Below are positions 2,681-44,019 of a DNA stretch of 59,321 nucleotides, in pieces; the first letter of the stretch is position 1, and every line of letters begins with the position of its first letter. Under the pieces are notes generated by a model. The model worked only from the letters and a program-made list of their open reading frames with translations. It was not told the DNA's origin and did no database searches. Where the stretch lies: positions 1 through 59,321 of the IMG/VR virus record IMGVR_UViG_3300022719_000028. One strand, written 5' to 3'. A program made the translations under genes and the position numbers. The stretch comes from a virus.

Positions 2681-2878
2681 ATGCGTTGGATTATTCAAAG
2701 CGAACCTCACAAAAGCGGAACTCGTTGGGAAGGGAATGTTGTTGTTGTTCGCGGCGGCGGCGACTATCGGATCCCGGTTCAACATTGCGAACTTGTGGAA
2801 ATGAGTTTGCGGCTTCACGGGCGCGTTTTTGGAAGTTACTTGGAAACCGTTCGCGATTTAATGCTTGCGGGATTCTGA
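2681..2878 (+). CDS. hypothetical early protein (65 aa)
   Basis: First ORF after cassette promoter 1. GAAAGG RBS 9 nt upstream. Followed directly by an intrinsic terminator. Confidence 0.6.
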   Translation: MRWIIQSEPHKSGTRWEGNVVVVRGGGDYRIPVQHCELVEMSLRLHGRVFGSYLETVRDLMLAGF

Positions 2879-2884
2879 AACAAC

Positions 2885-2916
2885 GCGGGCCGTCAAACCG
2901 GCGGCCCGTTTTTTTC
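2885..2916 (+). terminator. intrinsic terminator
   Basis: GGGCCG 2887-2892 / CGGCCC 2902-2907, then T7 2909-2915. Part of a ~65-nt module repeated at 4532 and 26966. Confidence 0.75.
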
Positions 2917-2938
2917 TTCAACTGAAAGGCAAGGCAAG

Positions 2939-3955
2939 ATGAAGATCAAACAAAATTCAACCGACATTCCGAACAACATCATTCGCAAGGCGTGCGCGTT
3001 CGTTGCGGGCGAACTGGAAAATTTCAGTTTGAAAGATGTTCGCGTTCTGAAAGTCAAGAACACAAAGCGGCGATTCACCGGTTACGCTTATTATGATGGG
3101 CATGAAGTTGTTATTCGTATCGGGCCGGCAAATCATTTCCCTGTTGAAAGCAAACGACTCGGCGTGAAATTCAGAGTTGAATCGCGCGTTGAAGGATTGG
3201 TTGCAATCATCGCGCATGAATTCGGTCACGTTTGGCAAGGCAAGAAACATCAAACAAGCCGGCGGCCCGGAACTTCGCAAGAGGTTGAACGGCAATGCGA
3301 ACGATTTGAAAAATTGATCCTGAAAGCATTCCGCGAACGCTCGGAAGAATTCCTTGAAGCTTGGGGCATCGGCCCGGATTGCAAACCAAAGGCCGAACCG
3401 GAAGCGCCGGTTTCTGATATCGTTGCCGAACGGGCGGCGAATGTTGAATCAAAGGTTGCCGAATGGGAAGCCGAGATTGTGAAACGCGAACGGGCGTTGA
3501 AGCGGGCAAAGAAAACGTTGACGAAATGGAAAGCGAAACGCCGATACTACCAAAAGAAACTTTCGGAACCGGGCCGGCAACTTGCGGCGAAGGGAAGCAA
3601 ACCGCGAAAACTGAAACCGGAAACGGTTTTGAAAAACAAGATCGCAAAGTTCATTCGGCTTTACCTGCGCGACCGATACGGCATTCAATCCGGAACGCAT
3701 GAACTTTCTTTTTCCGAGTTCATCAACCGGGAAGGCGAACCATGTTTGACGCGGCCCGCGCCGGATGTTGTTGAAGATCCGTTCGTTGATTTCTTTGAAT
3801 GGAAGGATATGAAAAAGCTGGTTGCGCTGGGCGATGTTCTGGAAGTTCACGCATACAATCGACGAACCGGCGAACGCGATGGAATGGGCGAAGATGTTCC
3901 GATCCCTGAAACCGAAGAAAAGCTTGAACAAGAAATTGAAAGGTTTGCGAAATGA
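2939..3955 (+). CDS. SprT-like HExxH zinc-metallopeptidase-like protein with charged coiled-coil C-terminal half
   Basis: RFTGYAYYDGHEVVIRIG ... LVAIIAHEFGHVWQ (HExxH). RBS GAAAGGCAAGGCAAG-ATG. Confidence 0.5.
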   Translation: MKIKQNSTDIPNNIIRKACAFVAGELENFSLKDVRVLKVKNTKRRFTGYAYYDGHEVVIRIGPANHFPVESKRLGVKFRVESRVEGLVAIIAHEFGHVWQGKKHQTSRRPGTSQEVERQCERFEKLILKAFRERSEEFLEAWGIGPDCKPKAEPEAPVSDIVAERAANVESKVAEWEAEIVKRERALKRAKKTLTKWKAKRRYYQKKLSEPGRQLAAKGSKPRKLKPETVLKNKIAKFIRLYLRDRYGIQSGTHELSFSEFINREGEPCLTRPAPDVVEDPFVDFFEWKDMKKLVALGDVLEVHAYNRRTGERDGMGEDVPIPETEEKLEQEIERFAK

Positions 3956-4200
3956 CGAGGCCACCGAAGAAACGATTGGCGGCGGAAAAACTTTTTGAAA
4001 CGTTGGCAACCGGGCCAATATCAATCGACGATATAACAAAAGGCCGTTCGCATTCCGAACCGGAACGGCTTCGCGAGAATTACGATCTTTGGTTTCGTTC
4101 TTGGGTACGCAATCAATTGATTGATTTGATTCCGCAACTATCGAAAGAAGCGGCGGAACGGATCGAAGAAAAACTTTCAGAAAAACAAAAAAAAGAGTGA
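3952..4200 (+). CDS. hypothetical protein (82 aa)
   Basis: ATGA start/stop overlap with the upstream gene. Its stop lies inside the cassette-2 dyad. Confidence 0.5.
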   Translation: MTRPPKKRLAAEKLFETLATGPISIDDITKGRSHSEPERLRENYDLWFRSWVRNQLIDLIPQLSKEAAERIEEKLSEKQKKE

Positions 4201-4298
4201 TATCAGAATTGACCGAACGCCGATAAGTGATATCATATAAACATCGACGGAAGGCAAGGCCGTCAAACATCACTCGAAACTTTGAAAGGCACGGAATT
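4197..4298 (+). promoter_or_regulatory. early promoter/operator/leader cassette, copy 2
   Basis: TGATATCA 4198-4205. -35 TTGACC 4209-4214. TATCAT 4231-4236 (TGATATCA 4228-4235). Hairpin GACGG/CCGTC 4246-4264 with loop AAGGCAAGG. GAAAGGCACGGAAT before ATG 4299. Confidence 0.7.
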
Positions 4299-4535
4299 AT
4301 GACAGTCACAAAAACAGTTGATATCAAAACCGATTTGATTGAAAGCTTGGTTGAGCTTCGCGAGAAGATGGAAGCCGGCAAAACAACGGATGCCGGATAC
4401 ATTCTTTCGGAAGTTCTCGATGCGGTTTCATCATCATCGGTTTCGGTTACTTGCGAACGGGTTGTTCGCGACGATAAGCAACCGGGCGCGTTGCCGGAAG
4501 GCGAAACCAACTACGCGGCATACAACATCGACTGA
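4299..4535 (+). CDS. hypothetical early protein (78 aa)
   Basis: An internal ATG of ORF 4227-4535 is chosen because the upstream part of that ORF is the promoter/leader. Canonical RBS spacing. Terminator follows. Confidence 0.6.
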   Translation: MTVTKTVDIKTDLIESLVELREKMEAGKTTDAGYILSEVLDAVSSSSVSVTCERVVRDDKQPGALPEGETNYAAYNID

Positions 4536-4540
4536 AACAA

Positions 4541-4570
4541 CGCGGGCCGTTTCGGCGGCCCGTTCTTTTC
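4541..4570 (+). terminator. intrinsic terminator
   Basis: GGGCCG 4544-4549 / CGGCCC 4556-4561 followed by a T-rich run. Confidence 0.7.
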
Positions 4571-4593
4571 TCTTATCACTGAAAGGCAAGGCA

Positions 4594-4920
4594 ATGAAGA
4601 ATCAAATCAAGGCATGCGGTTTGGAAGCAATCGAAATGATTTACGAAGGCGATACGGTTGCGGCGCATTCGATGGAATCGGAAAGCCGGGAATGCGAAGG
4701 CCCGCAAGCGAACTATGTTGTTGGGCAAGTTATGAAAACCGTTCAACCGGGCGAAGATCGCTTTTGCAAACATGCGGTTGAATGCTATCAAATCCGAATC
4801 ATGCTGGAAGTTAAAAAAGGCAAAACGAATTTTCGGCGTTCTGGTTTTCTTCATTATGTTCCGGTTAATGGAACAACCAACGTTTTCGGAAAGCCGAACA
4901 ACTTGGTTCATACGATCTGA
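4594..4920 (+). CDS. hypothetical early protein (108 aa)
   Basis: GAAAGGCAAGGCA-ATG RBS. The upstream part of ORF 4339-4920 overlaps the previous gene and a terminator. Confidence 0.6.
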   Translation: MKNQIKACGLEAIEMIYEGDTVAAHSMESESRECEGPQANYVVGQVMKTVQPGEDRFCKHAVECYQIRIMLEVKKGKTNFRRSGFLHYVPVNGTTNVFGKPNNLVHTI

Positions 4921-4927
4921 AACAACG

Positions 4928-4957
4928 CGGCCCGGAAACGGGCCGTTTCCTTTTTTT
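4928..4957 (+). terminator. intrinsic terminator
   Basis: CGGCCCG 4928-4934, GAAA loop, CGGGCCG 4939-4945, then TTTCCTTTTTTT. Confidence 0.75.
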
Positions 4958-4971
4958 GAAAGAACTATTCA

Positions 4972-5325
4972 ATGAATTACGATCCTGAAAAATTTGACTT
5001 TGGCGAACGCACGAATGAAGAAATTGCGGCGGCGGCTTTGGAAGTTGCCGAAGTGATGCGAAATCATTTCGGGCCGGATTGCAAGCCGGAACATATCGTT
5101 GGAATGTTGGCAATGATTGCGCTTCAATATCAAATGAATTGCGGAACGGGCGCGGATTCGCTTCATGCGATTATTCACAACGCCGGCGTTTGTTGGAACG
5201 CAATGTTGGAACATCAGGGTTTCATGGATCCGGACGAATCAACTCCGGGCTTCATGAATCCGGATGATGATGATGATGATGATGAACTTGGCGGCTTTGA
5301 TCGTCACGGATTTTCACAAAACTGA
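4972..5325 (+). CDS. hypothetical acidic protein (117 aa, C-terminal poly-Asp run)
   Basis: ORF with a GAAAGA RBS-like element. No family recognised. Confidence 0.55.
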   Translation: MNYDPEKFDFGERTNEEIAAAALEVAEVMRNHFGPDCKPEHIVGMLAMIALQYQMNCGTGADSLHAIIHNAGVCWNAMLEHQGFMDPDESTPGFMNPDDDDDDDELGGFDRHGFSQN

Positions 5326-5336: not shown

Positions 5337-6005
5337 ATGGGAAGGCTAAAAAATGGCGCTTGCCGATGCGGGTTATCCTCAAAGATTCATTGCGTTGATT
5401 GCGGCAAGGGAAAGGCCGAAGCGAAAAAACTTTTCGTTCATCTTGGCGAATCCGGGCCGTTCGCTTCCGGGAAATTCATTGACGAACAAACGGAAGCAAT
5501 CGCGTTCAGCTATCCGAGAGGGCCGGCAACGGGCGCAATCTTTTCCGAATGCCGGAATCATCGGTTCGCGCTTTGGCGGATATGGGACAGACGAAAGCCG
5601 TTCGTTTGTTTCATCGGCTTGAATCCCTCGACGGCTGACGAAACCAAAAACGATAATACGGTTTCGCGTTGCGTTCGCTTCGCCGAAGATTTTGGCGGCG
5701 GCGGATTGGTTATGCTGAATGCGTTTTCATACCGGGCAACCGATCCGGAAGAAATGAAGCGGCAAGCCGTTCCGAATTTGATGGAAAATATCGATTGGAT
5801 TTCGGCGTTCGTTGGCTTGGCGGCGCTATCAGTTGCGGCTTGGGGAACGCATGGAACGTTCGCGAATCAAAGCGATTTCATTGCCTATCGAATGCGGAAG
5901 GATCTGCGAATGCTTCATTGTCTCGGAACGAACAAAGACGGAACGCCGAAACATCCGTTGTATTTGAAAGCCGATACGAAACCGGTTTTATGGTGCGAAC
6001 CGTAG
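5337..6005 (+). CDS. DUF1643-family protein with N-terminal Cys-rich extension
   Basis: NHRFALWRIWD..FVCFIGLNPSTADE..NDNTVSRCVRFA..GGLVMLNAFSYRATDP..WGTHG..LHCLGTNKDGTPKHPLYL matches the DUF1643 signature as I remember it. Confidence 0.7.
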   Translation: MGRLKNGACRCGLSSKIHCVDCGKGKAEAKKLFVHLGESGPFASGKFIDEQTEAIAFSYPRGPATGAIFSECRNHRFALWRIWDRRKPFVCFIGLNPSTADETKNDNTVSRCVRFAEDFGGGGLVMLNAFSYRATDPEEMKRQAVPNLMENIDWISAFVGLAALSVAAWGTHGTFANQSDFIAYRMRKDLRMLHCLGTNKDGTPKHPLYLKADTKPVLWCEP

Positions 6006-6087
6006 GAACGCGAAATTTCGATTCTGACGGCTTCGGGCGGTTCGGCGTAGGTTGAACCGTTTCGGGCCGTCAAAACGGCACGGCGCA

Positions 6088-6120
6088 ACGCTCCGGGATT
6101 TCTCCGGGGCGTTTTTCTTT
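6088..6120 (+). terminator. intrinsic terminator
   Basis: ACGCTCCGG 6088-6096 / CCGGGGCGT 6104-6112 (one G-U pair), then TTTTTCTTT. Confidence 0.65.
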
Positions 6121-6685
6121 GGGCGTTGCCTACAACCGGGCGGGCATCCGAAAAAGTTTATTTCAGTTTTTTATTTCGGCGGATCTATATTTTGTGGATG
6201 ACTCCCGCAAAAAACGGAAATGCACGGAAATTCCGGGAATTCAAACACAAGATATAGGGGTTGCCGGGCGGCCCGAATGGATCTGGTTGCGGTTTTGGGT
6301 ATTGAGGCCGGCGGAATGGATCCGATATCTTCGCAAACGCAACGAACGAAATTGAACCTTTCAGGCTTTCGCCGTATCCTGTTGATAACCGGCAAGCGCC
6401 GATTGGTTCACGTTCGTTGCAGTTCGTTGAATGGATACGCCGTTGCCGGTTTTTTCGTGCGCGGATATTCGTTGCAACGCGGCGTTGGGGCGAATGATTG
6501 CGAACGCCGTTACAAAGGAACCGCGCAATCAACGGCAATCGACCGAATGACGGGAACACGCAAGTTTTCGTTTTGGGGGGTAGGGGGGCTACGGCTTCTC
6601 TCCCTCATTCTGGGATCCGCAAGAGGGGTTTGATTCAAAGTTGAATGATTAAACTTGAAACTGAATTCACAAAAGGATCTAATCA
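6121..6685. other. 565-nt non-coding, highly structured region (candidate long leader/ncRNA or replication origin)
   Basis: Only Arg-rich, low-quality ORFs. Long hairpin 6339-6358/6405-6420. Hairpin 6480-6486/6503-6509. Five GATC sites. Shares 17-mer and 11-mer strings with the 13.5-kb non-coding segment. Confidence 0.55.
6571..6590 (+). promoter_or_regulatory. G-rich box TTTTGGGGGGTAGGGGGGCT upstream of the 6686 operon
   Basis: A near-copy CTTTGGGGGTATGGGGGCGGGTT lies at 32367-32389 upstream of the next long operon. Confidence 0.3.
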
Positions 6686-6892
6686 ATGAACCAACAAAGG
6701 CCGTTTTTGTATGGGAAAGTTAAGCGGGTTGATTGCTTTTGTGGAAAAACAACAATCCGGACAGTTAGAGGAAAAAGAGAAATAGAAATTTGCGACGGTT
6801 GCAAGCGCGACGTTCAACCGCATGAAATTTCGATTGACGATACCGGGCGAATGCTTCGGGAGTTGGACAAAAAAAACAAAGGCGCGGAATGA
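6686..6892 (+). CDS. small zinc-ribbon protein (68 aa)
   Basis: CFCG ... CDGC pairs. AAAGGA RBS. ATGA overlap with the next gene. Confidence 0.5.
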   Translation: MNQQRPFLYGKVKRVDCFCGKTTIRTVRGKREIEICDGCKRDVQPHEISIDDTGRMLRELDKKNKGAE

Positions 6893-8174: not shown

Positions 8175-9023
8175 ATGGCAAATCCTCTAAAATGGCACGG
8201 CGGCAAAACGTATCTTGCCGGCGAAATCATCAAACGCTTTCCCGCGCATACGCGCTACGTTGAACCTTACTTCGGCGGCGGGGCCGTTCTCTTTGCAAAG
8301 CCGTTCGAAGGCGTTGCCGAGTATGCGAACGATCTGGATCTTGAGTTGATGAATTTTTGGCGCGTTCTGCAAAACGAATTTCTTGGGCCGTTGTTGATTC
8401 GGCGGTTGAACCTTGAACCGTTTTCAAAGCCGGGGTTCACGGTTGCAAATGCAAAATCGCAATATGCGGATCCGAATTCTTCGCCGGTTTTACGGGCGGC
8501 GAATTTCTTTGTTCGATACCGTCAAAGCCGGCAAGGCTTGGGGAAGGATTTCGCAACGCCAACATCGCGAACGCGGCGCGGAATGAACGAACAAGTTTCG
8601 GCATGGCTTTCGGCGGTTGATGGATTACCGGAAGCGGCGGAACGATTGCGACGGGTTGAAGTTCGCAACGAATCCGCGATTGATTGCATTACCGAACTCG
8701 ATTCGCCGGAAGCTTTGTTCTATCTGGATCCGCCATATCTTCCAGAAACTCGGAAAGCAAAAAAGACATACGGCGAATTTGAAGCAACGGTTGAACATCA
8801 TGAATTGCTTTTGAAAACGTTGGCGGGTATCAAAGGCAAATTCATTCTTTCCGGTTATCCTTCAACGATGTATCGAAAAGCGGCGAAGGCGAACAAATGG
8901 AAATGCGACAAAATAGAAATCGACAACAAAGCAAGTTCGGCGAAGAAAAAAGAAATCAAAACCGAATGCCTTTGGTTTAATTTCAGCCGGCGGGAATTCG
9001 GGAAGGGATTGAAAGCGGAATGA
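8175..9023 (+). CDS. Dam-type (D12 class) N6-adenine DNA methyltransferase
   Basis: KWHGGKTYLAGEI..YVEPYFGGGAVLF (SAM pocket) and FYLDPPY (DPPY at 8727-8738). RBS GAAAGGCTGACACA-ATG. Confidence 0.9.
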   Translation: MANPLKWHGGKTYLAGEIIKRFPAHTRYVEPYFGGGAVLFAKPFEGVAEYANDLDLELMNFWRVLQNEFLGPLLIRRLNLEPFSKPGFTVANAKSQYADPNSSPVLRAANFFVRYRQSRQGLGKDFATPTSRTRRGMNEQVSAWLSAVDGLPEAAERLRRVEVRNESAIDCITELDSPEALFYLDPPYLPETRKAKKTYGEFEATVEHHELLLKTLAGIKGKFILSGYPSTMYRKAAKANKWKCDKIEIDNKASSAKKKEIKTECLWFNFSRREFGKGLKAE

Positions 9024-9778
9024 GAATTTTGATAGTCGGCGCGCCGAAAACAGGAACAACGGCATTGATGGATTCAATCGCCGGAAGTTTAGGTTTCAAA
9101 TGGGAGTTCGAAAAAACCGATTGCGGTTCGGATAATCTTGTGAGAAAAATTCTATTTCATCAATTTGCGGATCGGATGATTGATGAATTTGATCGAATCA
9201 TTTTCACTTGCCGGGATCCTCGCGATAGGTTGATTTCGGCGTTTGTTTATTTCTTGGCGTTCGGGCCGGCAAACATGAAGGGGCCGTTCATCGCGCTTGA
9301 TCTTTTGCAGCGGAAAGAATTCGAACGCGAACTTCCGTTTCATATTTTGTTGCGGGAAGCTTCGCGGCATTGCTTTTTTCATTACTCGTTTTCTGAATTT
9401 GTTGATCGGGATTCGCTGGCGATGATTCGCCGGCATCGCGACAATCCGAAAGTTTGCGTTTTTCATTATCACGATTTAATCAAAACAAACTTTGAAACCG
9501 TTTCGGAGTTGATCGGAAAAAAGATCAAACCGTTTTCCGGGCATTGGTCGCCTATTGCATACCGGGCCGGCGGTTGTGAGTATTGGCGGCGATGGTTCAC
9601 GGAATCGGATCTTGATTATTTTACCGATATCGCGAACGATTGGGCGCGAACTTTTGGATTCGGTTTGGATTGGCGGCTTTCGGATGAAGGCGCGAACGCG
9701 GCGGAAGGATCTGAATGGTTCAAGATCGGCGCGAACAAATGGCGAAAGATAAACGGCGTTCCCGAACTGGAATTTTGA
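9020..9778 (+). CDS. sulfotransferase-family protein
   Basis: GAPKTGTTAL (5'-PSB loop, PKxGTT) and FTCRDPRDRLISAF (3'-PB, RDPxDRxxS). Confidence 0.7.
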   Translation: MRILIVGAPKTGTTALMDSIAGSLGFKWEFEKTDCGSDNLVRKILFHQFADRMIDEFDRIIFTCRDPRDRLISAFVYFLAFGPANMKGPFIALDLLQRKEFERELPFHILLREASRHCFFHYSFSEFVDRDSLAMIRRHRDNPKVCVFHYHDLIKTNFETVSELIGKKIKPFSGHWSPIAYRAGGCEYWRRWFTESDLDYFTDIANDWARTFGFGLDWRLSDEGANAAEGSEWFKIGANKWRKINGVPELEF

Positions 9779-9779
9779 A

Positions 9780-10568
9780 ATGAAAAAAGCGGCTTGCGTT
9801 TTCACGATTGTTCAAGATGAAAGTTTTTTCTTGCGGCTTTGGTTTGAACATTATCTTCAACATTTCGACGCAACCGATCTTTTTGTTATCGATCATAATT
9901 CCATCGAACCGGTTCAAGTTCCGGAAGGCGTGAACGTTATTCGGCTGGAATATGAAACATCGTGGGCGCATGATTGGCTTTGCGAGACGGTTGAAAACTT
10001 CAATCGTTTTTTGCTTGGAACTTATGAAACCGTTTTGTTCGCGGAAGCCGATGAATACTATATCGCGAATCCTCTTTTGACTTCGGCCGCAAAGCTTCCG
10101 GAAGTATTGAACGCGGAACATATCGCAAAGAAACCGGTTTTGCGTTCTCAGGGATTTGATATCGTTCAGATGGTCAACGAAGATCCGCCGGTCGATCCTT
10201 CAAAGCCGATGTTGGGGCAACGTCAATTGATGTTCGCTTCCGATGCCTATTGTAAGCCGTGCGCGGTTCGCGTTCCCGTTCGATGGAATTACGGCTTTCA
10301 TACTTTGAGATCTCGCGATATGGTTACGTTCGTTCCCGAATTGGTTCTTTGTCATTTTCATTACTTTGATGAAGACATTTTGAACGAACGGAACGCATTG
10401 CGGCTTGAACGCAAATGGTGCGAAAAAGCTTTATACGATAACCTCGGAAAACAAAACCGAAACAGTTGCACGGAAGTTCGGAAGGAATTTTTGGAATGGA
10501 AAAAAAAGCGAACAATCATGCGGCCGATTCCGGACGAATGGAAATCGTTGATTCCCGCGTTGCGATAG
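9780..10568 (+). CDS. GT-A glycosyltransferase (Glyco_tranf_2_4 / GT92-like)
   Basis: ACVFTIVQDESFFLRLWFEHYLQHFDATDLFVIDHNS and EADEYY motifs. Confidence 0.5.
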   Translation: MKKAACVFTIVQDESFFLRLWFEHYLQHFDATDLFVIDHNSIEPVQVPEGVNVIRLEYETSWAHDWLCETVENFNRFLLGTYETVLFAEADEYYIANPLLTSAAKLPEVLNAEHIAKKPVLRSQGFDIVQMVNEDPPVDPSKPMLGQRQLMFASDAYCKPCAVRVPVRWNYGFHTLRSRDMVTFVPELVLCHFHYFDEDILNERNALRLERKWCEKALYDNLGKQNRNSCTEVRKEFLEWKKKRTIMRPIPDEWKSLIPALR

Positions 10569-11566
10569 TTGTTCCGTCGAATCGCGTTGATGAAATGTGG
10601 AAGTTCAAAAGCGAATGGGAAAGCGAACACGCAACAATCTTTTGCGTTTGGGATAAGGAAACCAAGCCGGGCCGGTTTACAGATTCGAAAACATTCCGTT
10701 CAATTTCGCATCGCGAAATCAAAGAACAATACGGCGAAGTTTCAAAAATCTTTTCAACCAATGACGGCGGGATCCGCATCGCTGGATTCTTGGAAGCGGC
10801 GCGGGCCGGGGCCGAAGTGATTATTGTTTTAGATGATGATACGCGGCCGCATGGTAGCGTTGCCGATTTCATTGAAGGGCATTGCCAAAACTTACGCGGC
10901 GGATTCCCGCGTTGGATTTCGAGCGCTCCGGGAATTCATCAACGCGGCTTGCCGTATCTTCCGGATATAAAAATTCAAAGGCCCGTTCTTTTGTCCGTTG
11001 GATTATGGCAAGGCGTTCCGGATGTTGACACAATCGAAACGTTCGCGGCATTGCGCCGGAAAATATCGCTTCATTACATACCACCAAAGGGAACGCGCAT
11101 CGTTCCGGCCGGGCAACTGGTAACGCTTTCGGGCATGAACTTCGCTTTCCCTGTTGAGTTTCTACCGGCCGCGTTTTGGCCGAAGCAATCGTTGGAAACG
11201 TTTCAAAGATTTGACGACATTTGGGGCGGCTTCTCAATGCAACTAATCATTGAACAGTTCGGCGGAATTGTGACAACGGGCGAACCGTTCGTTTTGCACG
11301 AACGAAGATCCAGCGCATACGCGAACTTGAAAAAAGAAACGCGCGGCATCATTGCGCATGATGAAGTTTCGCAATTGATCGACGGTTTCGAGAGTCAAGA
11401 AACATCGATTGCAAGAACGGCGTTCGCGTTCGTTGAACATCTGAGAAGAAAAGCCGGAATGATGGATTCGGATGTTGCCGAATACGTCAAGCAATGGGCA
11501 ACGGACTTTGAAGCATGGCTTGAACTATGCAAAAAACTTTTCCAAAAACTTTCCAAAAAAGAATGA
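10538..11566 (+). CDS. GT75 / reversibly-glycosylated-polypeptide (RGP)-like protein
   Basis: VAIVVPSNRVDEMWKFKSEWESEH..IFCVWD and IIVLDDDTRP resemble the RGP/UDP-arabinopyranose-mutase family N-terminus and DDD motif. Start 10496 or 10538. Confidence 0.5.
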   Translation: MEIVDSRVAIVVPSNRVDEMWKFKSEWESEHATIFCVWDKETKPGRFTDSKTFRSISHREIKEQYGEVSKIFSTNDGGIRIAGFLEAARAGAEVIIVLDDDTRPHGSVADFIEGHCQNLRGGFPRWISSAPGIHQRGLPYLPDIKIQRPVLLSVGLWQGVPDVDTIETFAALRRKISLHYIPPKGTRIVPAGQLVTLSGMNFAFPVEFLPAAFWPKQSLETFQRFDDIWGGFSMQLIIEQFGGIVTTGEPFVLHERRSSAYANLKKETRGIIAHDEVSQLIDGFESQETSIARTAFAFVEHLRRKAGMMDSDVAEYVKQWATDFEAWLELCKKLFQKLSKKE

Positions 11567-11649
11567 TATCACATTGACGGGCGGCCGATAAGTGATATCA
11601 TACAGTTGTTGAAGGCAAGGCAACAAAACAAAACGAAAGGCACGGAATT
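11563..11649 (+). promoter_or_regulatory. early promoter/operator/leader cassette, copy 3
   Basis: TGATATCA 11564-11571. TTGACG 11574-11579. TATCAT 11596-11601. Hairpin TTGTTG/CAACAA 11606-11626 with the same AAGGCAAGG loop. GAAAGGCACGGAAT before ATG 11650. Confidence 0.7.
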
Positions 11650-12598: not shown

Positions 12599-12940
12599 AT
12601 GATTGACAGAAACGCAAGAATCGTTCGGGCGATTGAAAAAAAGATCGTTCGAAACTTACTGGAAACGATGAAGGCCGAACATGGTTATTGGTTTCGGGTT
12701 TATGATCCGGAACCGGCAACAACGGCAACGCAAAACGTTGATGATGCGATGAACGCGATTTTTGCCGTTGACTCAGCAACCGTTCGTTTTACTGACAATC
12801 CCGAAAGCGGGTATCGCGGTTCGGTTTTGTTGGTTCTCGGAAATGACGGTTGGGATGTTATCTGCGATTATTCGGTTCGGCTTGAAGATGAAATGAAGCC
12901 GATCAACGAATTCGCCGACAACATCGAACAACATATTTGA
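12599..12940 (+). CDS. hypothetical protein (113 aa)
   Basis: GAAAGGCACGGAAAG-ATG RBS. Terminator follows. Confidence 0.6.
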   Translation: MIDRNARIVRAIEKKIVRNLLETMKAEHGYWFRVYDPEPATTATQNVDDAMNAIFAVDSATVRFTDNPESGYRGSVLLVLGNDGWDVICDYSVRLEDEMKPINEFADNIEQHI

Positions 12941-12947
12941 ACGAACG

Positions 12948-12975
12948 CGGCCCGGTTCGCCGGGCCGTTCTTTTA
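12948..12975 (+). terminator. intrinsic terminator
   Basis: CGGCCCGG 12948-12955, TTCG loop, CCGGGCCG 12960-12967, then TTCTTTT. Confidence 0.75.
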
Positions 12976-13006
12976 CTCTCGAATTTATTTTGAAAGGCTG
13001 GCAAAG

Positions 13007-13447
13007 ATGGACGGGCAAAACGGAACGCGAAAAACGCCGAACGTTATGACACAAGAAAACGCGATTGCAATGGCGGCGGCGGCGCTGGCGAATCAATCCG
13101 AAATCCGAAATCGCGCTTGGTTGAACGCGGCGGAAATCGGAAACTTCATTGCCGGTAAAGCGGGGATTGAACCGGATGATTTCAGACCGGCGGCGCATCA
13201 TGTTCACAAAATCTTGAAAGGCGTGAACATCGAATTCACGGCGTTAAACGTCAAGCAAACGGGCGGCGTTGAAACTCGCAAGCGAAACGCGGTTGCATCG
13301 GAACATCTGGATCTTCTCGCGGGGATGTTCAAGGCGTTGCCGAAGCAACAAAAAGAACAGGCCGATTTGTATTTTCGCGAACGCAACGGCGGGAAAGGCG
13401 TTGCCGAATTTCTCGGCATTTCTCAAGATACGCTTTTTCCGAATTGA
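13007..13447 (+). CDS. hypothetical protein (146 aa), possible C-terminal HTH
   Basis: GAAAGGCTGGCAAAG-ATG RBS. GKGVAEFLGISQDTLF looks HTH-like. Confidence 0.55.
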   Translation: MDGQNGTRKTPNVMTQENAIAMAAAALANQSEIRNRAWLNAAEIGNFIAGKAGIEPDDFRPAAHHVHKILKGVNIEFTALNVKQTGGVETRKRNAVASEHLDLLAGMFKALPKQQKEQADLYFRERNGGKGVAEFLGISQDTLFPN

Positions 13448-13638: not shown

Positions 13639-13746
13639 GTGAATTCACATTGACGGGCGGCCGATAAGTGATATCATTGGCGGCGTTGACAACAGGCGCG
13701 GAAGCCGAATTTCTTTATATGAATCTTTTACGAAAGGCGCGATGCA
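13639..13746 (+). promoter_or_regulatory. early promoter/operator cassette, copy 5 (drives the RHH-csrA-recombination operon)
   Basis: TGAATTCA 13640-13647. TTGACG 13650-13655. TATCAT 13672-13677 (TGATATCA 13669-13676). The leader differs from the other copies (GGCGCGGAAGCC). Confidence 0.65.
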
Positions 13747-14048: not shown

Positions 14049-14330
14049 ATGTTAGTTTTATCTCGAAAAGCGAATGAACGAATTTTGATCGGCGATGATG
14101 TTGAAATTGTTGTTGTTGAAGTTCGCGGCAAGCGGGTTCGGCTTGGCATCAAAGCGCCGGGCGAAACTCGGATCATTCGCGCAGAATTAAAGGCGGCTGA
14201 CAATGATGGAAACAATGACGAACTCGGAATTCAACCATTTGAAAAAGACGTTGAAGAAAACCGACAACGCGACAAAAACGATCTTCAACATGCGGAAGAT
14301 GATCGAACAGGCGTTGCCGGAAGATCTTGA
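14049..14330 (+). CDS. csrA: CsrA/RsmA-family RNA-binding translational regulator with acidic C-terminal extension
   Basis: MLVLSRKANERILIGDDVEIVVVEVRGKRVRLGIKAPGETRIIRAEL aligns residue by residue with canonical CsrA (E. coli MLILTRRVGETLMIGDEV..VRIGVNAPKEV.VHREEI). Confidence 0.85.
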   Translation: MLVLSRKANERILIGDDVEIVVVEVRGKRVRLGIKAPGETRIIRAELKAADNDGNNDELGIQPFEKDVEENRQRDKNDLQHAEDDRTGVAGRS

Positions 14331-14578: not shown

Positions 14579-16114
14579 ATGGCGAAGAAAAAGACGGCGC
14601 GGGCAAAAAACAAAAAGCCGGCTGACGGAATCGATGTAGAATCAATCGGCCCGGTTGATCAAATTCATATTCCTATTCCGGAAGGCGGCGGCGTTGTCGC
14701 ATTGAAGGGGCCGAACGGGGCCGGGAAAACGAAAACGCTGGAAGCGGCGGAAGCTTTGGTTTCTGGCAACGCTCGCATTCTCTCGGCTTCTGACGGGGCC
14801 GATGCGGGGCTTGTGGATGGATTCGGCGCTTTGATCCGGGTTGGACGAACAAGCCGGAAGGCGGGCGAACTGGAAGCCGTATCGATCATCGGGAAGTTCT
14901 CAGTTGCCGATTTAGTGGATCCGGGCTTCAAAGATGAAAACGCATGCGATGCGGCGCGGGTGAAAGCATTGATTCAACTTGCCGGGAAAACGGCGGAAGA
15001 ATCCGATTTCAAAGGTTTGTTCAATTCCGATGAACAGTTCAAAGAAATCGTTGGCGATGAACTCAAAGATCTTTCGTCGATGGTCGATATGGCCGGCAAA
15101 GTCAAACGGCAATGCGAAAGCGCGGCCCGGAAGCTTGAAAGCCAAGCCGACAAAAAAGAAACGGAAGGGCAAGGCATCATTGACGCGGCCGAACCGGAAC
15201 TTGAAAACTTGCCGGAAGGATCGCTTGAAGATTCGCAAGCCGAGTTGAACCGGGCGATTCGCGAACAATCGCGGCTTGAAGGCGTTCTTGAATCGCTGGA
15301 ATCCGGAAGGCAACAACGCGAAAGCGCGGCAAAGCAAATTGAAGAATTGCGAAAGAATGCCGGCGATGTTGAAAAGCTTGAAACGCTGGCAGACGCGAAA
15401 GCCGATATCGTTGCCGAAGCGAACGATAAAGTTGAACGGTTGAAAAAAGAGTTGGCCGAAGCCGAAACCGAAGCGAAAGATGCACAACGCGATTATCGGC
15501 AAGCTTGCGAAGCGAAAGATAACGCGATTTCGGCGAATGAAGAAATCGAAAAGCTTGAAAAGATTCTTTCAACTCAAAGAGAGGGTTCGGAAGATGATGT
15601 TCGCGAACAACTGGAAACCGCGAAACAAACGGCCGATGAATTGACCGATAAGGTTTCATCACTCAAAGGCGCGGAACGCATTCGCGAACGTTACGAAAAA
15701 GGGAAGGCGTTGAAAATCGAAGCCGACGATTTGAACGCCGAAGCGGAAGCGCTTCGCGATATCGGGTATTCAACCGATGATGTTCTTTCGGAAGCCGTAA
15801 GCGGCATCACAACGGCCGATCTGAAAATTGAAGGCGGCCGGCTGGTAACGGAAACGAAACGCGGAACAACGCTATTTCATGAACTCTCGCACGGCGAACG
15901 CTGGAAGATCGCGATTCAAGTTGCAATCGATATCGTCAAACAGGCGGCCGAAGAATCCGGAAAACCACCGTTGTTGATTTGCCCGCAAGAGGCATGGGAA
16001 GCTTTGGATCCGATCAACCGGGGCGAAGTCAACGAAGCTTTGAAGGGAACCGGAATCGTTATGCTGACGGCGCTTGCCGATGTTGGCGAACTCCGGGCGG
16101 AAAGCTTAGAATAA
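14579..16114 (+). CDS. SMC/RecN/Rad50-like ABC ATPase with central coiled coil
   Basis: Walker A GPNGAGKT. Long E/K/A-rich coiled coil. LSHGERWK signature-like motif. LLICPQEAWEALD Walker B-like. Confidence 0.7.
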   Translation: MAKKKTARAKNKKPADGIDVESIGPVDQIHIPIPEGGGVVALKGPNGAGKTKTLEAAEALVSGNARILSASDGADAGLVDGFGALIRVGRTSRKAGELEAVSIIGKFSVADLVDPGFKDENACDAARVKALIQLAGKTAEESDFKGLFNSDEQFKEIVGDELKDLSSMVDMAGKVKRQCESAARKLESQADKKETEGQGIIDAAEPELENLPEGSLEDSQAELNRAIREQSRLEGVLESLESGRQQRESAAKQIEELRKNAGDVEKLETLADAKADIVAEANDKVERLKKELAEAETEAKDAQRDYRQACEAKDNAISANEEIEKLEKILSTQREGSEDDVREQLETAKQTADELTDKVSSLKGAERIRERYEKGKALKIEADDLNAEAEALRDIGYSTDDVLSEAVSGITTADLKIEGGRLVTETKRGTTLFHELSHGERWKIAIQVAIDIVKQAAEESGKPPLLICPQEAWEALDPINRGEVNEALKGTGIVMLTALADVGELRAESLE

Positions 16115-16124
16115 ATCTCTCGCG

Positions 16125-16179
16125 CTCGGCATCGGCAAAAATGGATTGAACGGGCGCACGATGCCGGGCGTTTTATTTT
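16125..16179 (+). terminator. probable intrinsic terminator
   Basis: CGGCATCG 16127-16134 / CGATGCCG 16159-16166, then GGCGTTTTATTTT. The loop is long. Confidence 0.45.
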
Positions 16180-16203
16180 CTCGAAACTTTGAAAGGCTGA
16201 CAA

Positions 16204-17211
16204 ATGATTGATTCAAAGATTGCAGTTGAAGGGCCGAAGGCGCATTCTCCCGAATGGTACGATATCCGGTTTTTCGATCCGGATCGGGAAAGGCCGGTTG
16301 TGATAACGGCAAGCGAATCGGCGGCGGCTTGCGGCGCTTCGCCGTATCAAACCGCGCTTGAACTCTACATGACGAAGCGGCGCGAAATGGAAGCTTGGGA
16401 ACCGGACGACGAACAAAAAGAGCGCATGCGATTCGGTCAACGGATGGAATCGGTTGTTATCGACGAATACAAAAATCAAAACGATTGCGAAGTTGAAACC
16501 GATTTGCCGTTGTATCTTTCAAATCGATTTGAATTCTTGGGCGCAACTCCGGATGCGTTCGCGCGGAAAGATGAAGACGTTTGGGAACTGGAAGCCAAAA
16601 ACTCGAATTGGCGAATGTTCGATCAAAGCGGCGAAGATGAAAACAAATACGGCGAAGCCGGAACGGATCAAGTTCCCGCGTATATGATGTTTCAAGCGCA
16701 ACAACAAATGATCGTTCTTGGTTTGAACCGGGTTGATTTTCCCGTTCTGCAAAACGGGAATCGAATGTTGATTTACCGGGTTGAAGCTTATGAAGCTTTG
16801 CAAAATAAAATCATTGAATGCGGGAAAGAACTTGCCGAACGCATCATCAACGGCGAACCGCCGGATCCGGATTACACGCATGACGGAACCGCGAAATTGC
16901 TTCAAGAAATGTACGGCGTTTCGGTCGGAACCGTTATTGAACTCGATGTTGATGCCGAAGAACTTTGGTTTCGTCAAATTGAGATTGCCGAGAAGATCAA
17001 AGAACTTGAAGCGGAAAAAAAGGCAATCAAAAACAAGATGTTGGATATGATGGGCGATGCTGAGATTGCCCGTTTTCCGGGGCGAAATTTCAAATTGAAG
17101 CGAACCGCTATTGATGATTCGTATTGGACGGAACAAGATGTTCAAAAGATTGTGATCGGAGATATAAAGCGGCGCGGACATATCCGCATCACAAAATCAA
17201 AAGACAAATAA
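16204..17211 (+). CDS. YqaJ / lambda-Exo-type recombination exonuclease
   Basis: ITASESAAACGASPYQTALELYMTKR (YqaJ N-terminal signature). GATPDAF ... WELEAKNS (PD-ExK). Confidence 0.8.
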   Translation: MIDSKIAVEGPKAHSPEWYDIRFFDPDRERPVVITASESAAACGASPYQTALELYMTKRREMEAWEPDDEQKERMRFGQRMESVVIDEYKNQNDCEVETDLPLYLSNRFEFLGATPDAFARKDEDVWELEAKNSNWRMFDQSGEDENKYGEAGTDQVPAYMMFQAQQQMIVLGLNRVDFPVLQNGNRMLIYRVEAYEALQNKIIECGKELAERIINGEPPDPDYTHDGTAKLLQEMYGVSVGTVIELDVDAEELWFRQIEIAEKIKELEAEKKAIKNKMLDMMGDAEIARFPGRNFKLKRTAIDDSYWTEQDVQKIVIGDIKRRGHIRITKSKDK

Positions 17212-17220
17212 ACATTTCTT

Positions 17221-17280
17221 CGCGTTGCCCGGTTCGGATTATCGTTTTCCGTCATTGAAGCCGGGCGGCGCGTTTCTTTA
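17221..17280 (+). terminator. probable intrinsic terminator
   Basis: CGCGTTGCCCGG 17221-17232 / CCGGGCGGCGCG 17261-17272 (two G-U pairs), then TTTCTTT. Confidence 0.45.
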
Positions 17281-17302
17281 CTCGAAAGCGAAAGGCTGAC
17301 AA

Positions 17303-18454
17303 ATGGCAAGCGGAAATCAAATGCTGACACAAGATCAAATCGACGCGCAACGCGGAATGAGTTTGCGCAAATGGTTGAACAAGCCGGAAGTTCTTGAAGA
17401 TCTCGAATCTTCATTGACGGGTTGGATTTCAGCCGAACAATTCAAATCGCAAATTTTAGTTGATATCAATTCGGAAACTCTCGCGCGTTGTTCTCCCGAA
17501 TCAAAGTTTGCGGCGGTTCTCAAATGCGCAACGCTTCAACTGTTACCGTCATTGAATCACGTTGCGTTGATTCCTTCCAAAGTTCGCGAAGACGGCGTTG
17601 TTGTCAAAACCGAAGTTCGCGTTACGGTTCAATGGCAAGGCTATCAAGCTTTGATGCTTCGGCATCCGGACGTTAAAGATGTGAACGCTTACTTGGTTCA
17701 CGAATCGGATTCGTACAAATACGATCAATTAAATAAACGAATCGTTGAACATTCTTTTGATCCGTTGGATCCGCAACGAACTTTCAACAACTTCAATGAC
17801 GTTCGCGGCGGGTATGTAGTTGTTGAGTACAAAGATCCGAACCGGGCTGATAAACATCATTTCGTTACATGCGAAACAATCCGCAAGGCGCGGGGATGCG
17901 CAGAAACCGGCACGATTTGGGAAGCATGGTTTTTCGAAATGTGTATGAAAACTCTCTATCGCAACGCATACGCGCGGCGGGTTGTTCCGATGGATCCAAT
18001 GCTTGCGCGACGAATGGAAGAATTGAACCGGCATGAAGACGAACAACTCGGCAACGATCCGAAGCGAATCATTGATTCAACCGCAACCGCGATTGATCGA
18101 AAGCCGGAAAAACAGAAACCGCAAAGCCGGGCCGCGCAATTGGCTTCGGACGATTCGCCGGAATCTTCGCCGGTGGAACCGGAACCGAAAGCAACGGAAC
18201 CGGAACCGATGAACGAACCGGAACCGGAACCGGAACTTCCAGAAACGCCAACGGATGAACCAAGGCGCGAAACATCGGACGAACGCGGGCATTTCCAACG
18301 GCTGAAAGAAAAGGCCGAATGCGCAACAACCGTGAAAGAAATCGATTCGCTGAATGATGAAGCCGGCGAATTGGTTTCAAGCGGGGAACTGACGAACGGC
18401 GAATTCGGAATTCTGGTACAGTTGTTTTCGGAACTTGCAATGAAACTCGATTGA
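17303..18454 (+). CDS. recT: RecT-family single-strand annealing protein with Pro/Glu-rich C-terminal region
   Basis: SPESKFAAVLKCATLQLLPSLNHVALIP ... VQWQGYQALMLRH ... TLYRNAYARR. Adjacent to the YqaJ exonuclease. Confidence 0.8.
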   Translation: MASGNQMLTQDQIDAQRGMSLRKWLNKPEVLEDLESSLTGWISAEQFKSQILVDINSETLARCSPESKFAAVLKCATLQLLPSLNHVALIPSKVREDGVVVKTEVRVTVQWQGYQALMLRHPDVKDVNAYLVHESDSYKYDQLNKRIVEHSFDPLDPQRTFNNFNDVRGGYVVVEYKDPNRADKHHFVTCETIRKARGCAETGTIWEAWFFEMCMKTLYRNAYARRVVPMDPMLARRMEELNRHEDEQLGNDPKRIIDSTATAIDRKPEKQKPQSRAAQLASDDSPESSPVEPEPKATEPEPMNEPEPEPELPETPTDEPRRETSDERGHFQRLKEKAECATTVKEIDSLNDEAGELVSSGELTNGEFGILVQLFSELAMKLD

Positions 18455-18467: not shown

Positions 18468-19079
18468 ATGGCGTTAATGATTGACGCGAAGATCTGGTTT
18501 GATATCACAAGCAACGAACCGGCCGGCGTTCGGGGATTGATGATTGATATTTTGGCGGCCGGCGATTTGTTGAACGGTTCGGATATTATTACCGAAGCGA
18601 TGATTCAACAAAAAGTTTCCGATCAACGTTCGGTTGAACTGTATTGGGAACGTGCGATTGAAGCTTTGGAAACGAACGGATTGATCAAAATCGAACGCGG
18701 TTTGATTGATTCGGAAATTGTATTTCCCGATTCGCCGGTTGGCGAACTTCGCGAATGGCTGGAATGGTGGAACCGGTTGCATGATGAAGGCATTGTTCCG
18801 GCATCCTATCGAACGAACAAAGTTTCAACCGGGATTCGCAACGCATGGCGGCGGGTTCAACGTTCATCGGAATTGATGGAACTATTGGCAAGGCGCGATG
18901 AAATAGAAACGCAAATTCGCAATTCGGAATTTTGTCGCGAACGCTGGTTTTGTCTCGAAAAGCTTTTTGGCGGAAAGAACAAAACCGGTTGTTTTATTTT
19001 GGCTGAACTTCTCAGGGGCGCATATGACACAACAAAGGCAAACGGCAAACGAATCGCTTCCGAAAAAGTTTTCGGTTGA
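18468..19079 (+). CDS. hypothetical protein (203 aa), possibly winged-helix
   Basis: ORF with GAAGGGA RBS. No motif recognised with confidence. Confidence 0.5.
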   Translation: MALMIDAKIWFDITSNEPAGVRGLMIDILAAGDLLNGSDIITEAMIQQKVSDQRSVELYWERAIEALETNGLIKIERGLIDSEIVFPDSPVGELREWLEWWNRLHDEGIVPASYRTNKVSTGIRNAWRRVQRSSELMELLARRDEIETQIRNSEFCRERWFCLEKLFGGKNKTGCFILAELLRGAYDTTKANGKRIASEKVFG

Positions 19080-25550: not shown

Positions 25551-25578
25551 GGCGGCCCGGAAACGGGCCGTTTTTTAT
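25551..25578 (+). terminator. intrinsic terminator
   Basis: CGGCCCG 25551-25557, GAAA loop, CGGGCCG 25562-25568, then TTTTTTATTT. Confidence 0.75.
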
Positions 25579-25602
25579 TTACCTTTTGAAAGGCGCAAGA
25601 AA

Positions 25603-26040
25603 ATGAACAGGGAATTTGAATTGAACCGATTGGAACTGAAACAAAACTCGAATCCGGTTGTTTCCGAATTCGCGAAACGCATTGATGACAATCTTGCGGC
25701 CGTTGATTACTCCGGGCCGTCAATGTTGTTCGGTCAAGATCTCATTGCGTTGATGATGGAACTTTTGCTTTCGGTTTTGGAAGGCTGCATTTCGCAACGC
25801 TCGAAACCGGAAATGATCGAATCAATGAAAGCGCCTTCAATCTGGCAACGGATGTTGTTACGGCGAAGAATGAAGCGCGAATTGTACGGCGGAAATAAAC
25901 GCTTTGAATCATTGGACGGCGAAGGCGTTTATCAGGCTTTCATGAAGACAACGGCGGAAGCCGAACCGAACGAACTTTCAGAATTGATTGATTACGTTGA
26001 AGGCGAATCAATTCCGGATGTTGATTTTGGTTCGCTTTGA
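25603..26040 (+). CDS. hypothetical protein (145 aa)
   Basis: GAAAGGCGCAAGAAA-ATG. The longer ORF from 25528 would read through the terminator. Confidence 0.55.
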   Translation: MNREFELNRLELKQNSNPVVSEFAKRIDDNLAAVDYSGPSMLFGQDLIALMMELLLSVLEGCISQRSKPEMIESMKAPSIWQRMLLRRRMKRELYGGNKRFESLDGEGVYQAFMKTTAEAEPNELSELIDYVEGESIPDVDFGSL

Positions 26041-26684: not shown

Positions 26685-26768
26685 CGGACGGCCGATAAGT
26701 GATATCATATAAACATCGACGGAAGGCAAGGCCGTCAAGAACGAAACTCAAAACAAAGGCACGGAATC
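26681..26768 (+). promoter_or_regulatory. early promoter/leader cassette, copy 6
   Basis: TTGACG 26681-26686. TATCAT 26703-26708 (TGATATCA 26700-26707). Hairpin GACGG/CCGTC 26718-26736 with loop AAGGCAAGG. The distal dyad is absent. Confidence 0.65.
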
Positions 26769-26969
26769 ATGATCGTTACGGCAAAAGCAAAGAATAAAGC
26801 GGAAACTCGCAAGGTTGTTCAATGGTGCGAAAAGTTCGCGGCGGTTGCATGCGGGCGATTGCATCGCGGATATTGCACGGTTCACTTTTCAAGCGCTCCG
26901 GCGTATGCACGGCAAGAAATGCTTGAAGCATACGAAGCCGATGGAATACCGGTTATTTCAATCGACTGA
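26769..26969 (+). CDS. hypothetical early protein (66 aa)
   Basis: AAAGGCACGGAATC-ATG. Terminator follows. Confidence 0.6.
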   Translation: MIVTAKAKNKAETRKVVQWCEKFAAVACGRLHRGYCTVHFSSAPAYARQEMLEAYEADGIPVISID

Positions 26970-26975
26970 AACAAC

Positions 26976-27009
26976 GCGGGCCGTCAAGCCGGCGGCCCGT
27001 TTTTTTTTC
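26976..27009 (+). terminator. intrinsic terminator
   Basis: GGGCCG 26978-26983 / CGGCCC 26993-26998, then T9. Near-identical to 2885-2916. Confidence 0.75.
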
Positions 27010-27029
27010 TTCAACTGAAAGGCAAGGCA

Positions 27030-28272: not shown

Positions 28273-28280
28273 CAACCAAC

Positions 28281-28320: not shown

Positions 28321-28336
28321 TGCGAAAGGCTGGCAA

Positions 28337-44013: not shown

Positions 44014-44019
44014 TCAGGC

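Follow-up and report, generated by a model that had tools for sequence, protein, structure and literature searches.

Putative leaky intrinsic terminators and repeated promoter modules in the co-directional genome of a probable planctomycete phage

In phage biology, leaky internal terminators are already familiar in principle, as are morons and repeated regulatory cassettes. Long-read transcriptomics of six Pseudomonas phages mapped 14–133 sites of termination in each, for which a fall in reads of only 20% was enough, and phiKZ carries one conserved terminator motif family (PMC10914365). The promoter early stem-loop (PeSL) of T4-type phages, by its published definition, is a single conserved intergenic element of ~100 bp that holds both a stem-loop and a sigma70-like promoter (PMC2839356). 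Here, we describe internal terminators and repeated promoter modules in IMG/VR virus record IMGVR_UViG_3300022719_000028, analysed over its whole length of 59,321 nucleotides (the window). The first ~126 bases are repeated at the end (12–137 = 59196–59321), and the window is therefore one complete, circularly closed or permuted phage genome of ~59,184 bp. All of its convincing genes lie on the + strand, as do the features described below unless stated otherwise. Our best explanation for the hairpins between these genes, held with somewhat better than even confidence, is that they are true intrinsic terminators, leaky in part, that lie within co-directional operons driven by a few strong, near-identical sigma70-type promoters.

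An earlier note on this DNA had listed ten GC-stem/U-tract terminators standing directly before an RBS (ribosome-binding site) and a start codon. Hairpins were found at all ten sites (2885, 4542, 4927, 12947, 16125, 17221, 25552, 26976, 28281 and 44021). They are GC-rich, with folding energies of -17 to -29 kcal/mol, and T makes up 5–8 of the 8 nt directly 3' of each. The end of the hairpin lies 11–23 nt from the RBS and 25–38 nt from the ATG (29–32 nt at nine of the ten). The GAAAGG form of the RBS, attributed by the note to every downstream gene, is present at nine; gene 4972 has GAAAGA. With five further sites (6088, 34443, 44462, 46402 and 48180), fifteen show intrinsic terminator anatomy, with energies of -15 to -31 kcal/mol and 5–8 T in the next 8 nt. 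The quality of the U-tract varies, being interrupted in many (TTCTTTTC, TTCTTTTA) and a perfect U7–U9 in others.

A strict scan of the window (hairpin folding energy ≤ -15 kcal/mol, loop ≤ 8 nt, at least 5 T in 8) returned 22 terminators on the + strand and 4 on the - strand, while 40 dinucleotide shuffles gave 7.2±2.3, with a maximum of 12. The compact terminator sites are all intergenic. Structure, position, strand bias and enrichment were thus observed directly, and as judged from the sequence the elements are genuine intrinsic (Rho-independent) terminators.

A scan of metagenome and viral collections with the core of the promoter described below returned a single close relative, here called R, under several contig names. 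It is the 56.5-kb contig Ga0181578_10000184, also present among the IMG/VR contigs and recovered from samples Ga0181578 and IMG 3300017956/67/68, and shares ~79% identity with the window over 45 kb; R coordinates given here are a composite of contigs L009, L025 and L007. Because only this one close relative turned up, the covariation evidence is drawn from two genomes and from paralogous copies within them. Eleven terminators are kept at orthologous junctions in R, and compensatory changes are directly visible. Between 28281 and R35094, a G-C pair is swapped to C-G (GGGCCGGC to GGCCCGGC), the 3' arm having changed to match, and 46402 differs from its counterpart by several compensated stem changes. 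At the junction of 25552, R has an unrelated hairpin with a U-tract instead (R31642). The compensated changes, together with this replacement, suggest that selection has acted to keep terminator function, not sequence.

Hairpins of this kind could also act mainly in RNA stability or processing, as protectors of 3' ends or as 5' stabilisers after cleavage, with termination incidental. The region of the major capsid gene lends itself to such a view, as the gene is bracketed by 46402 and 48180, the two most stable hairpins, and the hairpin directly 5' of it is kept in R and, with unrelated sequence, in a distant relative. However, a U-tract lies directly 3' of nearly all stems, a termination-specific feature that stabilisation does not need, and the elements show strict strand polarity and placement just past stop codons. 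The hairpin at 51256–51289, between the head-tail genes and gene 51314 (-27 kcal/mol), was excluded as a terminator because it has no U-tract; on the opposite strand it forms a weak terminator-like site. Its existence shows that such hairpins occur without a U-tract, and the U-tracts elsewhere are therefore not a by-product. We consider a primary role in stability very unlikely.

The earlier note had overlooked eight near-identical sigma70-type promoter modules of 90–130 nt, which change the picture to one of promoter, small open reading frame (ORF), terminator and promoterless genes. The modules are P1 (2555–2683), P2 (4175–4301), P3 (11540–11652), P4 (11862–11974), P5 (13622–13749), P6 (26647–26771), P7 (27256–27381) and P8 (43452–43578), with -35 hexamers starting at 2589, 4209, 11574, 11896, 13650, 26681, 27284 and 43486. 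Each comprises, in order, an A-rich tract, a GTGA(T/A)(A/T)TCA palindrome, TTGACGG, a 16-nt spacer and an extended -10 (TGATATCAT), followed by a 5' untranslated region (5' UTR) with the motif GGCAAGGC, the RBS GAAAGGCACGGAA and the ATG. In P1, the A-rich tract is followed by GTGAATTCA, TTGACG-16-TGATATCAT, a 5'-UTR hairpin with loop AAGGCAAGG, the RBS GAAAGGCACGGAA and ATG 2681. P8, inside the structural gene block, has TTTACT as its -35 hexamer. In this genome, the RBS form GAAAGGCACGGAA occurs almost only on promoter-proximal genes.

A typical unit begins with a promoter module and a small first ORF, followed by a terminator, one to three promoterless genes and the next promoter or terminator. 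Four units consist of promoter, one ORF and terminator (P1-2681-T2885, P2-4299-T4542, P6-26769-T26976 and P8-43576-T44021, where T marks a terminator). Across 28.3–43.4 kb and 44–59 kb, which hold the packaging, head and tail genes, there are several terminators and no such promoter except P8.

The palindrome occurs twice per promoter, ~30 bp apart, with one copy 5' of the -35 and the other over the extended -10 (for example 4197–4235, 11564–11600, 13639–13676 and 27273–27310). It has 23 occurrences in the window against 3.35 expected, and the pair looks like putative operators for a dimeric regulator. Translation starts are stereotyped throughout the genome, with GAAAGGC, 8–9 nt and ATG; GAAAGG is complementary to the 16S 3' end CCUUUC. 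Across the window and R, the RBS falls into the sub-families GGCACGGAA, GGCTGACA(C)A, GGCGCGGAA and GGCAAGGCAA. The major capsid gene has GGAGGA, unlike the GAAAGG elsewhere.

At the ten junctions, the 25–38 nt between stem and ATG are taken up by the U-tract and the RBS, so that no sigma70 promoter fits. This absence of promoter space agrees with the earlier note, as does the promoter scan, in which no sigma70-like match was able to serve the genes behind the ten terminators; a match at 4956–4983 places its -10 element downstream of ATG 4972. The 17 promoter modules of this phage and R were made into a position weight matrix, which recovered only the eight modules above and, at 18481, a doubtful internal match, with no weaker copies. 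Neither scan nor matrix found a phage-type promoter between any terminator and the next ATG. As the genes behind the terminators have no space for promoters of their own, polymerases that pass the terminator must transcribe them, and the note's statement that they are reached only by read-through stands. The doubtful match (18481–18508, ATTGACGCGAAG...TTTGATATCAC) scores 20, compared with 26–32 for the eight modules; it lies within the start of gene 18468–19079 and is a possible internal promoter.

Unrecognised promoters, either activator-dependent or of a non-sigma70 type and overlapping the upstream coding ends or the hairpins, might nevertheless serve the downstream genes, since a simple scan detects consensus-like sites only. 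Two non-coding stretches could be read in this way: the nearly invariant 44484–44540, with TTGCGA-18-TACATT, and the conserved GGATCTATATTTTGTG 3' of T6088. The tight stem-to-ATG spacing at the ten junctions leaves little room for this, and the matrix detects no weaker module copies there. Sigma54-type sites are fewer than expected (8 against 24.5), and Pfam and PHROGs searches revealed no phage sigma factor or RNA polymerase. Hidden promoters of this kind thus appear highly improbable.

Under partial termination in co-directional operons, only some of the polymerases would be halted at a terminator. The first ORF would then be made in excess and the genes behind it expressed from read-through transcripts, while the hairpins would also give stable 3' ends to the terminated transcripts. 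The range of U-tracts, from perfect to interrupted, suggests a range of termination efficiencies. The distance from stop codon to stem was measured at sixteen elements, the fifteen terminators and a weak one at 30808. At ten of them it is 6, 6, 6, 6, 6, 7, 7, 8, 9 and -1 nt, and the short spacing is also kept in R. The ORFs upstream are ordinary genes of 65–511 aa. Work in E. coli (PMC4824070) has shown that the ribosome represses terminator tR2 nearly completely when a translated stop codon lies a few bp before it, and that full efficiency takes more than ~27–30 nt. Because the stems at the ten sites begin 0–9 nt past the stop codon, ribosomes may likewise mask these terminators, the ribosome that finishes the upstream ORF covering the 5' arm of the stem. 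Read-through would therefore probably be helped by translation and need no dedicated factor. We infer that the terminators are partly efficient and masked in this way, and that leaky, probably translation-assisted read-through sets a step-down in expression behind each promoter-proximal ORF, a usual means by which phages tune gene dosage.

Several points weigh against this explanation. Three elements (28281, 30808 and 34443) stand in series before the terminase and portal genes, and another three (44021, 44462 and 46402) all precede the major capsid gene; with passive leakage past three strong terminators, capsid mRNA would be very scarce. Between the upstream stop codon and the strongest terminator, 46402 (-31 kcal/mol, U8), lie 39 nt, and ribosome masking therefore cannot explain passage there. 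Masking would also require transcription and translation to be coupled in the host, probably a planctomycete. The short spacing between stop codon and hairpin may also be mere genome compaction. Expression of the capsid gene may thus involve active antitermination, unrecognised late promoters, or RNA processing and stabilisation.

Active antitermination would require a dedicated processive system, either a phage product or a cis-acting RNA from the promoter modules, as in lambda N/nut, Q/qut and HK022 put, and the terminators would then be tight barriers giving an early-to-late switch. We regard such a system as rather unlikely, yet as a live rival. It would account for the three consecutive terminators before the major capsid gene, which has no recognisable promoter, and the presence of a terminator one to four genes behind every promoter module resembles the lambda pL-N-tL1 and pR-cro-tR1 logic. 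More than 50 ORFs without an assigned function could include the factor. The 5' UTRs of the promoter modules also hold a candidate RNA element. Of the 17 modules in the two genomes, 16 have the core GGCAAGGC unchanged (P5 here has GGCGCGG), and it forms a hairpin loop in about two thirds of the copies, on stems that covary (GACGG/CCGTC, AACGG/CCGTT, TTGTTG/CAACAA and GGCGAA/TTCGCC).

In the window, the longer 9-mer AAGGCAAGG occurs eight times against 0.42 expected. Five copies lie in 5' UTRs (2631–2639, 4251–4259, 11612–11620, 26723–26731 and 43528–43536), where the 9-mer is the loop of a small hairpin with a covarying stem; at 2926, 4583 and 27019 it is the RBS of the three genes behind near-identical terminator modules. 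A small 5'-UTR hairpin with the conserved loop is present in five or six of the eight modules, and the motif is unpaired in others. The AAGGCAAGG/GGCAAGGC motif might act as a stabiliser, bind a protein or provide a standby site for ribosomes.

As in the earlier note, however, no antiterminator was recognised. Pfam and PHROGs searches on ~76 proteins found no Q, N or other antiterminator family, nor a sigma factor, RNA polymerase, integrase or repressor. Among N-termini, only that of 39171–39470, in the late region, was seen to be Arg-rich. Lambda N-type proteins are short and disordered, and the missing N-family match is for this reason weak evidence. Sequences resembling boxA (CGCTCTTA-like) have seven matches at up to one mismatch, with 15 expected, and none in a 5' UTR. 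Rfam gave no match and no put-like RNA, either in the whole window at the gathering threshold or in 5990–6700 at E ≤ 1. The 5' UTRs measure 45–70 nt and form at most one stem of 5–6 bp, unlike the two-stem put RNA, and in several copies the GGCAAGGC motif is not part of a hairpin.

The earlier note had also proposed that a conserved box before the stems is recognised by an antitermination factor. The box, AACGCGGSCCG, has eight occurrences against 0.37 expected; six precede stems, as the note had seen, and two lie inside genes (42235 and 50824). It consists of a TGA stop, six A-rich bases (AACAAC) as a spacer and the stem's 5' arm. It is confined to one paralogous terminator family (2885, 4542, 4927, 12947, 26976 and 28281, with six copies in R) and is missing from the terminators at 6088, 16125, 17221, 34443, 44462 and 46402. 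This finding does not support a role as a recognition site, and the restriction of the box to one family speaks against antitermination more generally; its conservation is, on comparison of the copies, explained by concerted evolution of repeated cassettes and not by protein recognition.

Five copies of the family have a stop-to-stem spacing of exactly 6 nt (TGA-AACAAC-stem). Three junctions had been described as near-identical; 2875–2941 and 26966–27032 are indeed ~98% identical, and 4532–4596 shares their stop codon, stem arms and RBS but differs in loop and T-run. When 16 copies from the two genomes are aligned, nine have GC at pair 15/32 and six have CG. A RAT-like antiterminator overlapping the 5' arm was considered and rejected, since the box is preceded by the ends of unrelated coding sequences and no competing hairpin is conserved. 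Pairing between U-tract and GAAAGG RBS, seen in folds, was judged trivial because any U-tract pairs with a purine-rich RBS.

The window also encodes a CsrA homologue (14049–14330; Pfam PF02599, E = 1.6e-19; PHROG 'CsrA-like regulator'), which is 43% identical to E. coli CsrA over residues 1–47 and keeps the Arg matching R44. The sequence ACGGAA occurs twice in four of the eight promoter-module 5' UTRs, at the hairpin and overlapping the RBS, and these copies are plausible as putative CsrA sites. The terminators, the 5' UTRs and the phage CsrA could accordingly form one post-transcriptional switch. Early in infection, ribosomes on the promoter-proximal ORFs would mask the terminators 6 nt past the stops, and the genes behind would be transcribed. 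Once accumulated, the phage CsrA, expressed from P5, would bind one ACGGAA in the 5'-UTR hairpin and one overlapping the RBS GAAAGGCACGGAA. Translation of the ORFs would stop, the terminators would become effective and the early units would be shut off. This switch, or alternatively a role of GGCAAGGC as the loading site of a new processive antitermination factor, strikes us as quite unlikely.

Turning back to the terminators as leaky elements, their individual anatomy is as follows. Module 2875–2941 has its TGA at 2876–2878, the AACAAC spacer, a hairpin at 2885–2909 (-19.9 kcal/mol), U7, the RBS GAAAGGCAAGGCAAG and ATG 2939; its ortholog is R9950. Module 4532–4596 has TGA, AACAAC, a hairpin at 4542–4563 (-17.2), an interrupted U-tract, an RBS and ATG 4594 (ortholog R11737), and module 4917–4974 has TGA, AACAAC, a hairpin at 4927–4946 (-17.0), the RBS GAAAGA and ATG 4972. 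In module 12938–13009, TGA and ACGAAC precede the hairpin at 12947–12968 (-18.9), the RBS and ATG 13007. Module 26966–27032 contains a hairpin at 26976–27000 (-19.9), U9, an RBS and ATG 27030, while in 28270–28339 a TGA is followed by the hairpin at 28281–28306 (-23.1), a U-tract, an RBS and ATG 28337 (ortholog R35094).

Outside this family, the terminator at 16112–16206 has a long imperfect hairpin (16122–16171, -26.1), a U-tract and the RBS GAAAGGCTGACAA before ATG 16204 of the RecE-like exonuclease gene, and is kept at R22530. The one at 17209–17305 (hairpin 17221–17272, -29.2; U-tract, RBS) precedes ATG 17303 of RecT and is kept at R23629. At 25551–25605, a hairpin (25551–25572, -17.5) is followed by U6, an RBS and ATG 25603. 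The doubtful element at 30772–30860 has a weak or branched hairpin, GTTTTTATTTTT, an RBS and ATG 30858; its tail and RBS are at least 95% identical in R. In 34441–34490, the hairpin (34443–34477, -24.4) overlaps the TAG stop of gene 34072–34443.

The terminator at 6087–6122 (hairpin 6087–6113, -17.3; U-tract) lies 81 nt past the stop of gene 5337–6005 and is kept at R12864. About 560 nt of sequence 3' of it, 6120–6685, have no convincing ORF and contain blocks at least 95% identical to R (6225–6289 and 6473–6629) against the 79% background. This region is preceded by the conserved GGATCTATATTTTGTG, has a fold z-score of -2.8 and no Rfam match, and is a candidate structured non-coding RNA or replication element.

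Around the capsid gene, terminator 44010–44075 comprises TAA, a hairpin at 44021–44042 (-19.7), a U-tract, the RBS GAAAGGCTGACAC and ATG 44073 (ortholog R48478), and terminator 44462–44492 a hairpin at 44462–44483 (-15.3) and U7, after which a nearly invariant non-coding stretch runs to ~44540. Within this stretch, 44484–44540 is almost 100% identical to R and includes an imperfect inverted repeat; with its TTGCGA-18-TACATT it is a candidate for a late promoter, or for the binding site of a regulator, ahead of the scaffold and capsid genes. Terminator 46402–46476 holds the strongest hairpin of the set (46402–46445, 20-bp stem, -30.9, U8), which ends 28 nt 5' of the major capsid ATG at 46474 (RBS GGAGGA). 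Just 3' of the capsid stop (48156), terminator 48180–48240 follows with a hairpin at 48180–48229 (-29.3) and a U-tract. One terminator before and one after thus bracket the capsid gene.

The hairpin variants are identical within a genome and different between genomes, and orthologous sites can hold different variants. Identical copies are 2885 and 26976 here, and R9950 and R11030, as well as R17664 and R19596, in the relative. Similarly, the promoter-proximal RBS variant is GGCACGGAA in all seven copies here and GGCGCGGAA in all nine in R, a one-base difference between the two phages in every copy of this sub-family. From this pattern of concerted evolution, we infer recombination or conversion among the cassette copies; the near-identical junctions would be the product of recombination and homogenisation among repeated cassettes in each genome. 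The phage's own RecE/RecT pair could catalyse this homogenisation.

Comparison of the cassette boundaries with R revealed single events bounded by modules. Gene 4594–4920 and T4927 lie between two terminator copies here and are absent from R, which has a single terminator; R has an extra terminator (R11030) between the homologues of 2939 and 3952. In R, an identical cassette of promoter, 98-aa ORF and terminator occurs twice, at R17262–17717 and R19200–19650, ~1.9 kb apart, either as a real duplication or as an assembly artefact. At R19978, in R only, a terminator directly abuts a promoter module. Genes absent from R are not enriched beside modules (6 of 27 module-adjacent genes against 12 of 56 others, Fisher p = 1.0), and modules as hot spots of gene turnover are thus not demonstrated. 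The likeness to PeSLs suggested by the earlier note extends to the repeated promoter and terminator modules and to the few cassette gains and losses bounded by them; it ends at the terminator modules, which have no promoter, and at this lack of enrichment.

Among the genes recognised with Pfam and PHROGs are those for the RecE-like exonuclease (starting at 16204), RecT (17303), the large terminase (35530), the portal (39485), a MuF-like head protein (41318), the HK97-type major capsid protein (46474–48156) and the tape measure (53293); two DNA methyltransferase genes were also recognised. No tRNA or tmRNA genes were found in the window. Homologues of the large terminase at 40–45% identity are annotated in Gimesia genomes (Planctomycetaceae), and the host of the phage is for this reason probably a planctomycete. 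Megablast with 10 kb as query found no match among 50,697 phage records. In more distant relatives (L010–L012), whose terminases are 47–53% identical, canonical terminators are few and the repeated modules absent, and by this comparison the dense cassette system is lineage-specific. The sole recurrence among them is a strong terminator directly 5' of the capsid gene in L010 (terminase 53% identical).

A 905-aa gene spans the window ends (56760–59321 joined to 1–290) and has a long, low-complexity tail rich in Thr, Ser and Gly, encoded by AACGACAAC-type repeats. Directly 3' of it (321–2592) lie a fusion of GNAT and GT2 glycosyltransferase and a second putative transferase ORF (1810–2592); elsewhere, 9020–11566 holds a sulfotransferase-like gene as well as one for an RGP-like glycosyltransferase. 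The phage may modify its own fibre by glycosylation.

To our knowledge, there is no experimental knowledge of transcription control in phages of Planctomycetota. The signals in this genome are unusually legible, with one promoter type, one main terminator family and a stereotyped RBS, and they could be used as parts in planctomycete genetics; tools for genetic work in Planctopirus limnophila or Gimesia exist (PMC4910669). The layout allows one to predict the genes produced in excess and those that rely on read-through, and it offers a clean natural test of whether terminators 6 nt past a stop codon are gated by translation.

Compared with known internal phage terminators, such as T7 TE/Tphi, lambda tR1/tL1 and those of Pseudomonas phages (PMC10914365), the elements share the GC hairpin with U-tract, the intergenic position on the coding strand, promoterless downstream genes and many copies per genome; phiKZ likewise has one conserved motif family. 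They differ in a host lineage that is probably Planctomycetaceae, in the unusually tight and regular RBS and ATG 28–32 nt past the stem, and in a stop codon only 6–9 nt before the stem. With ribosome-suppressed terminators (PMC4824070; pyrBI-type attenuators), they have in common a stem 0–9 nt past the stop at ten sites, within reach of the ribosome. They differ in having ordinary genes, and not leader peptides, as upstream ORFs, and in the absence of alternative antiterminator structures.

The order of promoter, conserved promoter-proximal RNA motif, first gene, terminator and further genes is shared with lambda N/nut, Q/qut and HK022 put, as are late genes behind strong terminators; here, however, no N- or Q-like protein, boxA or two-stem put-like RNA was found, and the conserved box overlaps the terminator stem itself. 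Lambdoid morons resemble the four units of promoter, one ORF and terminator in the orientation of the flanking genes. The match is one of structure, and the units here use the phage's own standard promoter and terminator modules, with genes behind them that depend on read-through.

The PeSLs of T4-type phages (PMC2839356, PMC4122927) share the A-rich tract and strong sigma70-like promoter, stems of the GGGC...GCCC type, homogenised copies within a genome and a single-gene indel bounded by two copies (here gene 4594–4920). Since a PeSL unites promoter and stem-loop in one element, the terminator modules, which lack a promoter, are not PeSLs. Here, promoters and terminators occupy distinct junctions as modules of their own, and the promoter module carries its stem-loop, without a U-tract, in the 5' UTR. 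The modules also show no enrichment of accessory genes beside them (p = 1.0), and the phage is not T4-like. Set against all of these systems, the elements are ordinary in kind, and new only in their lineage and very regular geometry.

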